Notes: generated by a model from the sequence alone, not told the origin. Shown: positions 14,083-18,227, counted from the first letter of the stretch. The stretch: 64,000 bases of DNA from an uncultured delta proteobacterium (GCA_963724765.1 CAVRVY010000001.1:1024001-1088000); one strand, 5' to 3'. Program-made: numbers and translations.

Positions 14083-16258
14083 ATGTTTGTGAAGCCAAGT
14101 AGTGGGCTATTGGGTTTGGTTATGGTGGTGGGGTCGGCCGCGCTTCTGGCTCCCACGGCGCGGGCGCTCGGTCCGGTCAATGCGGCGGCCGCTCCATCGA
14201 TTCGCGGCGACGCACGATCCATCCTCGGCCAGTTCGGTGTCCTCGCGATCGTTCCGATCAACCCGGAGCAATCCTTCGTCGAGGGCTACGAAGCTTACCG
14301 CGCGCACGATCTGATGAAGACGATCGAGCGGATGACGCTCGCGGCCGACAAGTACCCCGCGCTTGCCGACTACGCGCTGTTCTATCTCGGGTCGGCCCAG
14401 CGCGACAGTGGCGACAATCAGAACGCCGCCGCGACTTTCCGGCGGCTGAGCTACGGCTATCCGCAAAGCGTCCTCGCCGATGAAGCGTCGCTCCAGTACG
14501 CAGAAATCGAATTCAAACTGGGACGGCTCGGCGACGCGCAGACGGCGGCCGCGGCGCTGGCTGCTCGCAATCCTGACCCGGGAATTGACTCGCAGGCGCG
14601 GCTAATCGAGGCGCGCGCCTCGCTCGGCCTTGGCGACGCGCAAGGCGCCTTCAGCCAACTGCAGGCGCTGCGCGAAAAGTATCCGCAGGGCGCTGCCGAC
14701 AGCGATGCGCGCACGCTCGCCTACTCGATTGCCGCGGCCCATCCCGATCTGATCGACACTCACTCGCTCGGCTACCATCGCCGCGAGGCCGCGTTGCTCC
14801 TGCACGAGGGCCACTCCGCCATGGCGCTTAGCCAGGTCGACGACGGCGCTGGCGCTCGAGCCTCCGGCCAGCGTGCATGCCGAGTTGCTGTGGCTTAAAG
14901 CCCGCGCGCTGCGGGCTGATTCAGACCGCGAGATGCTCGCGCTCGACGCCTATCTCACGTATGCGCCGCATGGCGAAATGGCTCCTGAGGCGCTCTATCG
15001 GCTGGGGCATCTGCAATGGCGTACCGGCGATACGAAGGCTGCGCGCGCGACGTTCACCAAACTGGTGCAGGAATTTCCCGCGCGCGAGATCGCGCCGGCC
15101 GCGATGTTCGACATCGGGCGCGCGTACGAGGACGACGCTCAGTGGGACCTCGCGCGCGCCGCGTACCTGCGCCTGGTCCGCAGCTATCCGCATAGCACTG
15201 AGGCCGCCGATGGCCGCTTCCGCGCGCCGTTTGCGCTCTACATGACCGGGCACTTCGACATGGCCGCGCGCGAATTCGCCTCGATGCAGCCGATGGCCGC
15301 GTCGGCCTCCGAGCGCGACGGGCTCTCGTACTGGCATGCGCGCTCGATGGAGCGCTCCGGCCAAAGCATCGCGGCCACCGCGATTTACCAGAGTCTGGCG
15401 CAAAGCACCGCGAGCAACTACTACCCTGAACTGGCGGCGCGCCGGATCGGCGCGCCCACGGCCCAGTTGGCCGCGGCGGACGCGCCTTCACTCGACGCCG
15501 CCGTGCCTTCCGTGGCGCCCGGCACCCTTGCCGCGTTTCATCTGGACCGTGTCACCACGTTGAAGCGGCTCGGCATGACCTATCTTGAACCGCCCGAGTT
15601 GCGCGCGCTCGCCAACGTGGACTCGAGCGACCCGCGCGTGCGCGATTTCGTGCTCGCCGAATTGCAGCGCACGGGCGATTGGTATGCGGCGATCGAGATA
15701 GCAGTGCGGTTGGAGAAGACCGGCAGCCTCGATTCCTCGACCACCGAGCGGCTGCGCTACCCGCGGGCTTACTGGGACATGATCGCGCAGGCCGCCAATG
15801 GCGACGCGCTCGACCCTTACCTGGTGCTGGCGCTGGTGCGCCAGGAGAGCCTGTTCAATCCGCAGGCGCGATCGGTGAGCGACGCGCGCGGCCTGATGCA
15901 GTTGATGCCGGCTACGGCCGACCGGATAGGGCCGTCGGCGGGTGTCGAGCAGGCCTCGCTCAACCTCTATGATCCTTCGCTGAGCGTGCGCGTGGGCACC
16001 GCCTATCTCAAGGACCTGTTCGAGATGTTCGGCGGCGATCCATTCAAGGCGGTCGCGGCCTACAATGCGGGCGAGCATGCGGTCCAGCAATGGAACGCCA
16101 AGTATCCCGGCGACGACGATCAATGGGTCGAGAATATCGGCTTTCGCGAAACCCGCGACTACGTCAAACGGGTGATCGGCGGCTTGCGGGAGTACCGGAT
16201 GCTCTATCCGTCGCACACGGTCTCCAGCGGCGCGACTCGGCCGCAGGGCCCGTCATAG
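14083..16258 (+). pseudogene. TPR-repeat soluble lytic transglycosylase (Slt70-like), split by a +1 frameshift near 14845
   Basis: ORF 14032..14898 has a signal peptide and TPRs; ORF 14873..16258 has TPRs and the SLT domain (RQESLF, ARGLMQLMP, AYNAG, ETRDYV); the frames join at GTC GAC GAC G GCG CTG. Confidence 0.8.
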
Positions 16259-16484
16259 GGCCGTCTTCAGCAGAACCGCCATCGGCCGGCAAGCTGCGGG
16301 CGTTCGCGCAAAGGACTTCCTGGGGAGAAAGTGCGCGCTCCGCTCACGAGGCCACTAAGCGACGGCGCTAAGGCCGGTGCCATGACACATGTCAGCGGGG
16401 TTGGGTCTCGCTCAGTCGCCCAGTGGCGATGCGACGAGCGCCTCCGATTGACCGCGATCATTCGTCTGCTTACGCTACGACGCT

Positions 16485-16655
16485 ATGAAACTGCTCAACC
16501 GCCAGTTGTTCGTCCTCGTACTTAGTGTCGGAGCGTGCGTGACCACGACCGGGTGTTTCTCTTGCACTACGGTGCATAACCCACCGCCTCAAGTCACCAT
16601 CCAGCAGTCGCCTCCTGTGGTAGTCGCGCCTAATCCGCCGCCTCCAGCCCAGTGA
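16485..16655 (+). CDS. Putative 56-aa Pro-rich lipoprotein (not in ORF track)
   Basis: MKLLNRQLFVLVLSVGACVTTTGCFSCTTVHNPPPQVTIQQSPPVVVAPNPPPPAQ; signal peptide plus TTGC lipobox-like site. Confidence 0.6.
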   Translation: MKLLNRQLFVLVLSVGACVTTTGCFSCTTVHNPPPQVTIQQSPPVVVAPNPPPPAQ

Positions 16656-16720
16656 CACTGTTGCGAGGCCCGCAATTTCGCTCATGTCTCGGAACAATGC
16701 AAAAAAATTAAAGACTAATT

Positions 16721-16815
16721 TGGCTGAGGGGGTAGGATTCGAACCTACGAGCGACTTTCGCCGCTAACCGGTCGTTTTTACAACCGGTTGCCTTCGGCCA
16801 CTCGGCCACCCCTCA
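16721..16815 (-). tRNA. Non-canonical class II (Ser-like) tRNA or tRNA-like RNA with an enlarged anticodon arm
   Basis: TGAGGGG/CCCCTCA acceptor followed by G-CCA; D arm GCC-GAGTGGCCGAA-GGC; long variable arm AGCGGC-GAAA-GTCGCT; T arm GTAGG-TTCGAAT-CCTAC; anticodon stem ACCGG/CCGGT encloses 12 nt (TTGTAAAAACGA). Confidence 0.75.
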
Positions 16816-16840
16816 GTGCGCACCTGCCAGCGCAAGATCG

Positions 16841-16912
16841 GGAGAGCGCGCTAGGATTCGAACCTAGGTCTTCGCCGTGATCGCGACGCACTACGCTCTG
16901 TGCTACGCGCTC
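16841..16912 (-). tRNA. Non-canonical short tRNA-like RNA with a 4-bp anticodon stem (central triplet UCA)
   Basis: GAGCGCG/CGCGCTC acceptor, TA linker, D arm GCAC-AGAGCGTA-GTGC, TCGC-GATCACG-GCGA, variable AGAC, T arm CTAGG-TTCGAAT-CCTAG; 3' end is TCC(C), with no encoded CCA. Confidence 0.65.
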
Positions 16913-16920
16913 TCTATTCG

Positions 16921-17220
16921 CACAATGCTTGGGACTTGGATCAGATAGATTAAACCTCTATTCCAGGCACAACTTGGCGTCTTCGAACATCCAAGGCCGC
17001 TCCTGACATGGATTAAACCGGAGGCATCGCTAAGAAGTTCCATAAGCGCCTAATCTTCCCTAAAGTTGCCGTGTGGGTTGTACAAAAACTTGTACCCAAA
17101 CACTTCGATTACCCCCCGCCATGCACCCCTGCGATGGTCCGTCCGCAAGCGGAATGCAACCGCTTACCTAAATGAGTTACTGCGAGATTTCGCAATCAAA
17201 TCAGGGAGTTATGCGGCAAT
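16921..17220 (-). ncRNA. Candidate structured non-coding RNA upstream of the tRNA-like pair
   Basis: Lower-GC tract without a convincing ORF; several hairpins and long-range complementary segments found by eye. Confidence 0.35.
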
Positions 17221-17330
17221 TTGGTTCTCGTTTCGTGCATCGTTGGCCAGCGGAATCGCTTCGGAATAGCGATAGAAACTTGTCAAGATAGCGTCCAGGT
17301 AGCTGCGGCCGTAGTGTAAAGGATCGAAGG

Positions 17331-18227
17331 GTGATAGCAGTCGGCGAGCCGCTGCCCGGACCATTCATCGGTATCGACGTCGGCGAGAATTTTCTCGACC
17401 TCGCGATCGTCGATGCTCCGCCACGCACGCTGGTTTTTAAACGCGTCGGGCTCGACGGACTGAAAGAGCCTGTCTGCGACACGCTGGCAGAGAAAATCAA
17501 AGACGCGGCGCCGGGAATCGATGCGCGCGCGATAGCACTGGTCGACTCGCCGCGATGGCCGCGCGATCTCGATTGGTCGCGCGGAACGCACAAGCGCGAT
17601 CCTGCGCCGCGCGGACGCGAGGTCGACGCCGTCCTGCGGCAAATCTATCGCACGTTAGTGGCTGTGCCCGCCGGCGAAACTCGGATGCCGGGGCTCTCGA
17701 TGTTCCCGACGCCGCGATATGACTACTTCGCGCGATGGGCGCGCGATCCACGATGCAAGCCGCATCTGAGCGCGATCGCGGCCGAACTGTTCGGCGGGCT
17801 TTTAGATGATGATCGTGATGCGGGCGGTCCGACGCAGAGCGGTGGCGGAACTTTCACTCGCTTCATGCTGGCCGGGTTCGGAACCTATCGCGCGCTGGAG
17901 CGGCTCGGCGTGCCCGTCTTCGAGTCCTATCCCGACCTGCAGTTGCGCCTTTCGTCTCCATCGACCTCGCTTCCGCCCAAAAAGCAGCACGCGAAAGCGT
18001 TGGCCGTGCGCCGTGATATCGTCGCGTCGCTCGCGGCAGGGCTTGGGCTTCGCGACGCGCCCATGCCGAAAACTGTTGACCAGGCTGACGCCGCGGCGCT
18101 GGCGCTCGCGGCCGCCTCCTCGGCGCTCGGCGATACATTGTGGGTGGTTCGCCATCCATGCGAGGGACGTTTCATGCTCGCGCTCGACGCTCGCCAGGCG
18201 CGCTGCCTCGGCATAGGAGGCGCTTGA
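17331..18227 (+). CDS. DUF429-like protein (predicted RNase H-fold nuclease)
   Basis: N-terminal FIGIDVG, ALVDSPR, GREVDA, VFESYP and DQADAAALA motifs. Confidence 0.7.
   Translation: MIAVGEPLPGPFIGIDVGENFLDLAIVDAPPRTLVFKRVGLDGLKEPVCDTLAEKIKDAAPGIDARAIALVDSPRWPRDLDWSRGTHKRDPAPRGREVDAVLRQIYRTLVAVPAGETRMPGLSMFPTPRYDYFARWARDPRCKPHLSAIAAELFGGLLDDDRDAGGPTQSGGGTFTRFMLAGFGTYRALERLGVPVFESYPDLQLRLSSPSTSLPPKKQHAKALAVRRDIVASLAAGLGLRDAPMPKTVDQADAAALALAAASSALGDTLWVVRHPCEGRFMLALDARQARCLGIGGA

Follow-up and report, generated by a model that had tools for sequence, protein, structure and literature searches.

A tRNA-Ser-like gene with an anticodon arm predicted to close into a hairpin, within a species-specific insert of an uncultured deltaproteobacterial genome

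What is a gene that keeps the body of a serine transfer RNA (tRNA) but carries a helix where its anticodon loop should be: a relic, a decoder of unusual design, or an RNA with a role away from the ribosome? The question is raised by a 95-nucleotide (nt) tRNA-like gene at 16721..16815, on the minus strand of a 64,000-nt stretch of DNA (the window) from an uncultured delta proteobacterium (GCA_963724765.1, CAVRVY010000001.1:1024001-1088000). The genome holding the window (G000) comprises 5.4 Mb in 4 contigs with 62% G+C. The gene derives from a tRNA-Ser(UGA) gene of the same genus, and the chance that it is now a non-decoding pseudo-tRNA, an inert, well-preserved relic without selected function, is put at about even.

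The two tRNA genes that ARAGORN calls in the window lie on the minus strand. One is the gene at 16721-16815, reported as ‘tRNA-???’ with ‘ta’ in the anticodon field and matching exactly the coordinates given in a first-pass annotation of the window; the other, at 16840-16913, is called ‘SeC’ (tca). The former scores 46.5 bits against the Rfam tRNA model RF00005 over 16724-16815, above the gathering score of 29, and no other Rfam family matches at its locus. In minus-strand letters, the acceptor stem is UGAGGGG/CCCCUCA, with a U1-A72 pair, and is followed by G73 and an encoded CCA. U8 is present, and the D arm has a 3-base-pair (bp) stem and the D-loop GAGUGGCCGAA, with A14, G18, G19, and A21 all present, while the variable arm is AGCGGC-GAAA-GUCGCU and the T arm GUAGG-UUCGAAU-CCUAC. 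The ARAGORN and Rfam alignments thus bear out the earlier description of well-paired arms, U1-A72, G73-CCA, and a GAAA-capped variable arm. A long variable arm, G73, a Ser-type D arm, and homology to tRNA-Ser all place the gene with class II tRNA-Ser, but no Ser anticodon (NGA or GCU) lies in a 7-nt loop.

The segment holding the anticodon arm reads AACCGGUUGUAAAAACGACCGGUU. Minimum free energy (MFE) and centroid structures, energies, and alignment all define a rebuilt arm, AACCGGUUGU-AAAA-ACGACCGGUU (16766..16789, minus strand; tRNA positions 27-50), that forms a helix of 9 to 10 bp with one U.G pair, capped by AAAA or, in the 9-bp version, by UAAAAA. The MFE of the entire RNA, −49.2 kcal/mol, corresponds to z = −5.74 and is equaled by none of 200 shuffled sequences; the MFE and centroid structures both show the arm paired over 10 bp and capped by AAAA. 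When the structure is fixed, a cloverleaf with a 5-bp anticodon stem and an open 12-nt loop reaches −36.8 kcal/mol, compared with −44.0 kcal/mol for a 9-bp and −45.4 kcal/mol for a 10-bp anticodon helix. The nearest-neighbor model favors the closed arm over the open 12-nt loop by 7.2 to 8.6 kcal/mol, and the four extra pairs of the arm have predicted probabilities of 0.90 to 0.999. The 9-bp stem with a 6-nt loop proposed in the first-pass annotation is therefore recovered as a closed helix by MFE, energies, and pair probabilities alike. A functional decoder has a 7-nt loop, containing U33 and a purine at position 37, on a 5-bp anticodon stem; here, 12 nt separate the canonical stem strands instead. 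An RNA so folded is predicted to have no anticodon to present and to be unable to decode, as was proposed earlier. With its arm closed over 9 to 10 bp, it would pair with no codon, and any role would lie off the ribosome.

Could the gene nevertheless encode a decoding tRNA with an expanded loop, either a suppressor of frameshifts or multibase codons or a tRNA reading Tyr or Leu codons (through GUA or UAA) and inserting Ser? The letters UUGUAAA do stand at the start of the loop, ARAGORN adds the label ‘?(Tyr|Leu)’, and engineered tRNA-Ser with loops of 8 to 10 nt can read codons of 4 to 5 bases. However, 12 nt exceeds those functional loop sizes, the loop is predicted to be closed with the pair probabilities and energies given above, no such gene was found in any relative searched, and tRNA-Tyr(GUA) and tRNA-Leu(UAA) are already present in the genome. 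Decoding of this kind is very unlikely. Frameshift-suppressor tRNAs have a loop that is enlarged by 1 nt, or by up to 3 nt if engineered, and left open; the gene, with 5 extra nt and a loop predicted to be paired, does not belong to this class, and the suppressor role suggested earlier is improbable for an arm closed into a helix. Nor does it belong to the tRNA-Tyr class (GUA in a 7-nt loop, A73, and a Tyr body), having G73 and a far lower alignment score to tRNA-Tyr than to tRNA-Ser(UGA) (32.5 versus 61). The tRNA set of the genome is otherwise normal, with Ser(UGA, GCU, CGA, GGA), Tyr(GUA), Leu(UAA), and a standard tRNA-Sec at C3:1323593-1323688. Membership of the tRNA-Sec class (8/5 branch, 6-bp D stem, and UCA) was likewise rejected, as only RF00005 matches the locus and the true tRNA-Sec lies elsewhere.

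Parentage was assessed by aligning the gene with the tRNA-Ser(UGA) genes of G000 and 12 relatives. Global alignment gives a score of 61 with the tRNA-Ser(UGA) of G000, the next best being tRNA-Ser(GCU) at 34, which together with an identical variable arm supports the Ser-type body recognized in the first-pass annotation. A covariance model of the gene that includes the 9-bp arm scores 122.4 bits on itself and 85.4 bits on the next hit, again the tRNA-Ser(UGA) of G000. The 13 canonical genes are nearly invariant among themselves, whereas the gene differs from its parent at 7 positions outside the arm: G1-C72 has become U1-A72, one T-stem G-C pair has become A-U, and three D-loop bases have changed. 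The 16-nt variable arm is unchanged. Downstream of the CCA, a 13-nt run, AGUCUUUAAUUUU (16704..16716, minus strand; BLAST and alignment), is the same as in the 3′ flank of the tRNA-Ser(UGA) gene of a genus relative, G014, and differs from the flank of G000's own copy; the BLAST match to G014 extends 17 nt beyond the tRNA end. The alignment and the 3′ flank in common with G014 show that the gene arose by duplication, at the DNA level, of a tRNA-Ser(UGA) locus of the genus, the donor probably being a G014-like lineage.

The gene and its canonical counterpart share 7/5 acceptor and T stems, the 3-bp D stem, a Ser-type D-loop, the 16-nt variable arm, G73-CCA, G2-C71, A3-U70, and a 3′ flank; the gene differs in lacking a 7-nt loop and Ser anticodon, in U1-A72 and the T-stem A-U pair, in the three D-loop substitutions, and in standing at a nonconserved locus. 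In the alignment, at least three indels and several substitutions separate the parent arm (ACCGGU-CUUGAAA-ACCGGC) from the rebuilt one (AACCGGU-UGUAAAAACG-ACCGGUU), and the arm has accumulated changes at about three times the density seen in the body. The alternative description in the first-pass annotation, a Tyr-type loop UU-GUA-AA followed by a 5-nt insert, holds insofar as the letters are present, but the arm did not arise by one 5-nt insertion and the Tyr reading fails. A separate observation concerns the acceptor end, which is Gln-like because of the U1-A72 change: the tRNA-Gln(CUG) of G000 (C3:1127080-1127155) has the acceptor stem UGAGGAG/CUCCUCA and G73, one base pair away from that of the gene.

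An arm this unusual could be an artifact of sequencing or assembly, produced when an ordinary tRNA gene was altered by an indel error or when sequences were joined into a chimera, and the source assembly, in 4 contigs, has an estimated contamination of 5.16%. Parts of the 1-kb stretch around the gene occur in ten public metagenome runs from seven studies of soil, peat, and freshwater sediment, with the locus covered at 3- to 6-fold depth; none of the 12 runs found is an RNA run. Logan contigs of four runs from four studies were compared with the window. The best-matching run, X1, may be the source sample; X2 and X4 belong to two studies, neither of them that of X1. Record 8 of X2 spans 16473-16829, including the entire gene, and record 13 of X4 spans 16556-16807, including the entire arm, both with 0 differences and 0 gaps, while record 3 of X1 covers 16786-17215, including the second tRNA gene, with 0 differences. 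No contig shows a 7-nt loop. An indel error in the arm is excluded because the X2 and X4 contigs reproduce it exactly; the arm also departs from that of the parent by more than one indel. Contigs bridge the left junction of the insert described below (X2 record 7) and the right junction (X1 record 4, X2 record 9, and X4 record 16). Against this evidence, an artifact of either kind is scarcely credible.

If the sequence is correct, does the gene have counterparts elsewhere? BLAST searches of 40 relatives and 164 family genomes with both tRNAs of the window returned only matches of canonical tRNA-Ser length, with a 5-nt gap, and the second tRNA had no match at all in the same genomes. ARAGORN classified 36 matched loci in relatives, a number that takes in extra copies carried by seven family genomes, as tRNA-Ser(tga) in 35 cases and tRNA-Ser(cga) in one, all with normal loops. 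When the covariance model was run on 150 class-level genomes, the best 150 matches were all 88 to 93 nt long among the matches listed, with 632 weaker ones beyond. A pattern scan with stem and flanks fixed and the loop free (7 to 14 nt) found 0 loci in a viral collection and 0 in a collection of 185,579 species genomes, although such collections may leave out the window's own genome. Two loci were found in a metagenome collection and were rejected as counterparts, since ARAGORN finds no tRNA there and the flanking DNA reads as protein-coding. A phage collection gave zero matches, and a plasmid collection matched only tRNA-Ser genes of four Azospirillum replicons. Some of these negative tallies take in genomes flagged as unpublished (G058, G137, G174, G179, and G180). 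As judged from the family BLAST, the class-level model matches listed, and the pattern scans, the gene is a singleton, and the conservation and covariation among relatives that the first-pass annotation had proposed to examine finds no counterpart to covary.

The singleton status is mirrored at the locus. On the left lies a gene for a lytic transglycosylase with TPR and SLT domains (14873..16258, plus strand; Pfam) that is conserved in 38 of 41 genomes. For the SLT protein, the nearest record bearing a name is a metagenome-assembled genome labeled ‘uncultured delta proteobacterium’ (51% identity). On the right is a gene for a weakly DUF429-like protein (17331..18227, plus strand; Pfam E = 2.3e-4, below the curated cutoff), found in 17 of 41 genomes and directly adjoining the SLT gene in relatives. 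The spacing between the two is 29 to 92 nt in 11 of the 12 genus genomes having both but 1078 nt in G000, and DNA homology with six relatives ends at about 16275 and starts again at about 17330 (blastn and junction alignment). Gene coordinates in relatives, blastn breakpoints, junction alignment, and bridging contigs together delimit an insert of about 1.05 kb (16275..17330) that is present in G000 only. Relatives thus have no canonical tRNA-Ser or tRNA-Tyr at the locus, as the first-pass annotation required of them; they have no tRNA there of any kind, the gene lying in a species-specific insert, which counts against a conserved function. The twelfth genus genome, G009, carries an unlike insert without a tRNA between the same two genes. 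With different DNA filling it in G000 and G009, this intergenic site has therefore received DNA on at least two occasions within the genus. The G009 insert is 1.6 kb long (positions ~1377-3008 of L021, G009:C2:740500-744500) and encodes a TPR protein of 407 amino acids.

Pfam recognizes no integrase or transposase in or beside the G000 insert. The direct repeats flanking it are imperfect (16 of 21 nt) and were not taken as a target-site duplication. A promoter and terminator scan of 16250-17350 returned 0 sites of each type, a result that says little because shuffled sequences average 0.3 and 1.1, and a relaxed Rfam scan of the insert yielded no further family.

The tRNA-like gene shares the insert with a second irregular tRNA, which has UCA in the anticodon position (16840..16913, minus strand; ARAGORN ‘SeC’; 51.1 bits with RF00005) and is separated from it by 24 nt, on its upstream side and in the same orientation. 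This companion has good acceptor and T arms, but its anticodon stem is only 4 bp, A33 replaces U33, C37 replaces the purine at 37, the D-loop lacks GG, and CCA is not encoded. ARAGORN draws its acceptor stem with 8 bp. None of the tRNA genes of G000 qualifies as a close parent, the highest global score being 18.5, and a 15-nt T-arm core (repeat D6) is identical between it and the tRNA-Ser-like gene. A third ‘TTCGAAC’ repeat unit was considered as a further tRNA and rejected because it matches no Rfam family and the 197 nt upstream fold like shuffles (z = −0.17). Upstream of the tRNA pair, the stretch GGGUACAAG...UUGUACAACCC (17075-17097, minus strand) can form a hairpin; over 11 nt, it shows 91% complementarity to the 5′ half of the rebuilt arm and its loop (16775-16785), which may well be due to chance.

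Convergent with the tRNA-like pair is an open reading frame (ORF) for a putative lipoprotein of 56 amino acids (16485..16655, plus strand). A paralogue at G000:C4:575120-575350 (ORF 575173-575346) has 76% DNA identity and, read codon by codon, its differences are mostly synonymous, so that the ORF looks like a real gene. The family of about 56 residues, with two paralogues in G000, has a signal-like N terminus, a Cys, and then a Pro-rich tail; it has no Pfam match. Its distribution is sporadic, homologues being present in 18 of 165 family genomes, DNA homology to their loci is confined to the ORF, and irregular tRNAs occur at none of 11 homologue loci, one of which has a canonical tRNA.

The third component of the insert is a block of about 170 nt (17138..17312, minus strand) that matches no Rfam family and, among the 165 family genomes, occurs elsewhere only in the genus relative G003, in four copies that are 74 to 77% identical (L153-L156). 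Three of these copies lie 150 to 185 nt downstream of tRNA-Arg(ACG) or tRNA-Phe(GAA) genes, in the same orientation, and two head a repeat of >4 kb that is 97 to 99% identical. tRNA-Phe is present three times in G003, one copy scoring lower than the others (52.3 versus 72.3 bits). ORFs of the G003 repeat have no Pfam match, and no integrase is recognized in its first ~6 kb. From the repetition and position of the block, we infer that the insert is a remnant of a mobile element that associates with tRNA genes.

Irregular tRNA copies also occur elsewhere in G000. At C4:574962-575034 is a decayed copy of tRNA-Arg(ACG) (46 bits) in which the D-loop GG has become AA and pairs are nonstandard or broken; it adjoins the paralogue of the insert's lipoprotein gene, and the parent tRNA-Arg(ACG) is nearby. 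An Arg(UCG)-like gene at C4:37372-37444 (60 bits) has a 6-nt anticodon loop. Furthermore, a 91-nt gene at C4:64275-64365 matches the Rfam tRNA-Sec model at 61.9 bits (gathering score, 47) yet has a GCA (Cys) anticodon. The only homologue among the 40 relatives, in G002, has 83% identity and receives no call from ARAGORN. This gene resembles the selC*-type tRNA-Cys described by Mukai et al. (2017; PMC5389517).

How, then, would the tRNA-Ser-like gene have come to its present form? In the sequence of events proposed here, a tRNA-Ser(UGA) gene would have been duplicated at full length and then have diverged, the copy and another aberrant tRNA arriving together on a small piece of what was once tRNA-gene-associated mobile DNA. 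The anticodon stem-loop would have been rebuilt as a closed hairpin of 9 to 10 bp, with loss of decoding. The RNA, if transcribed, presumably with its companion, would probably have its ends matured normally, since its acceptor, T, and D core is intact and CCA is encoded. Bacterial seryl-tRNA synthetase (SerRS) recognizes its tRNAs by their long variable arm and acceptor end, without contacting the anticodon. For this reason, serylation by the single SerRS of G000 (C4:589428-589745) is plausible, although U1-A72 may lower charging. Structure, parentage, and uniqueness, together with the insert and the correctness of the sequence, are results of the analyses above; transcription, processing, and charging, like the absence of function, are points that we infer.

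That the outcome is an inert relic is favored by its singleton status, the acquired nature of the DNA, the defective neighbor, the other decaying tRNA copies in G000, the presence of all Ser and Tyr isoacceptors, and the lack of an evident partner gene. As expected of a pseudogene, it is surrounded by acquired DNA, and relatives carry no orthologue at this position.

Several observations weigh against an inert relic. Structure-breaking changes outside the arm, also expected of a pseudogene, are absent: every pair survives the 7 substitutions, the 1-72 pair and the T-stem pair through changes on both sides. In simulations, 7 random substitutions on the parent spare all pairs with P = 0.012, and spare all pairs with at least two double-sided changes with P = 0.0002, which upholds the earlier argument that intact pairing elsewhere does not look like random decay. 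Several separate changes in the arm have ended in a perfect helix, whereas a random 12-nt loop adds 4 pairs with P = 0.02, and the one wobble in the arm, U.G, pairs on the RNA strand only, being A.C on the other strand. Unbroken pairs, compensation, the perfect helix, and the U.G pair suggest selection on RNA structure. This signal is open to other explanations. The T-stem double change could be a single gene conversion event from the companion, since the 15-nt T-arm core is identical in the two genes. The compensated changes may also predate the loss of decoding, having occurred when the copy, carried by a mobile element, was still a functioning tRNA, and hairpin-templated mutation could perfect a helix in few steps.

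The same observations are the main support for a possible but doubtful alternative, that the gene encodes a selected, non-decoding tRNA-like RNA that is transcribed with its companion, has its ends formed by RNase P and 3′ processing, is charged by SerRS, and acts outside translation, where it would donate seryl groups, serve as a decoy for a toxin or nuclease that attacks tRNAs, or titrate proteins that bind them. Its four other helices and tertiary nucleotides are intact and its CCA is encoded, while mutations have gathered in the arm and left the body conserved. Precedent exists in the irregular soil tRNAs of PMC5389517, some of which are proposed to be charged yet unused in translation. 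On the other side, no counterpart was found in the 164 family genomes, in the 150 class genomes among the matches listed, or in the pattern scans. The U1-A72 pair departs from the G1-C72 of all 13 canonical copies aligned. Partners are not apparent either: the 1-kb insert encodes no enzyme, toxin, or antitoxin, no transferase, toxin, antitoxin, or nuclease gene lies beside the gene, whose neighbors are housekeeping genes by Pfam, and the lipoprotein gene is unlinked to tRNA-like genes at its other loci. FemAB was not found in a search of G000, the six Acetyltransf_6 genes are all far from the locus, and there is only one SerRS. The donor and decoy roles raised in the first-pass annotation therefore gained no supporting evidence. 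A more specific proposal, that of a natural anticodon-less seryl-tRNA whose closed loop is kept by selection, which SerRS charges but which is excluded from decoding, which is coexpressed with another non-decoding RNA, the tRNA(UCA), and which serves as a seryl donor or as a decoy for tRNA-Ser(UGA) against a toxin or phage factor, is improbable.

By model score the gene belongs to the tRNA family, and by descent it is a tRNA-Ser, but it lacks the anticodon loop that defines a decoder. Like tRNA pseudogenes of mobile elements, it belongs to a small species-specific insert with a tRNA-side repeat (in G003) and a defective second tRNA, in a genome with other decayed copies. Unlike them, it is full-length, with its other stems intact, compensated changes, and CCA kept, and its insert has no integrase or transposase within or adjoining. 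The nearest parallel in print is PMC5389517, which describes irregular tRNAs, polycistronic and from forest and peat soil metatranscriptomes, some of which are proposed to be charged and not translated. The gene resembles these allo-tRNAs in its soil or peat origin, in the tandem arrangement of irregular tRNAs, and in a Ser-type body uncoupled from the anticodon. However, their 12-bp branch is split 8/4 or 9/3 between acceptor and T stems, a requirement that excludes the gene (7-bp acceptor and 5-bp T stem) from the class, and they often lie near toxin-antitoxin genes, as this gene does not. Four motifs of the two window tRNAs had 0 occurrences in the supplementary tables of PMC5389517, although its figures S5 to S7 may show loop variants.

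A tRNA-shaped core without anticodon function is also a property of the tRNA-like domain of transfer-messenger RNA (tmRNA), of the Y RNA YrlA, and of tRNA-Other of Bacillus cereus, the last an aminoacylated, noncanonical tRNA cited in PMC5389517. These are conserved families with partners (SmpB, Ro60, and LysRS1/2, respectively), whereas the gene described here is a singleton recently derived from a normal tRNA. In the passages covered by a full-text literature search, no bacterial tRNA was described as having an anticodon arm that is closed or has 12 nt, although this does not prove that such a tRNA is unpublished.

For tRNA annotation, the gene is a caution, as both ARAGORN and Rfam label it as tRNA. 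If functional, it would be a natural tRNA that a synthetase can charge but that is barred from the ribosome, bearing on nonribosomal uses of aminoacyl-tRNA and on tRNA decoys in conflicts with toxins and phages, and it would offer a ready scaffold for synthetic biology. Given its single occurrence, interpretation as a relic is the safer one. As a relic, it would provide an example of tRNA-gene-associated mobile DNA copying host tRNA genes and would show that decoding can be lost while the tRNA body stays perfect.

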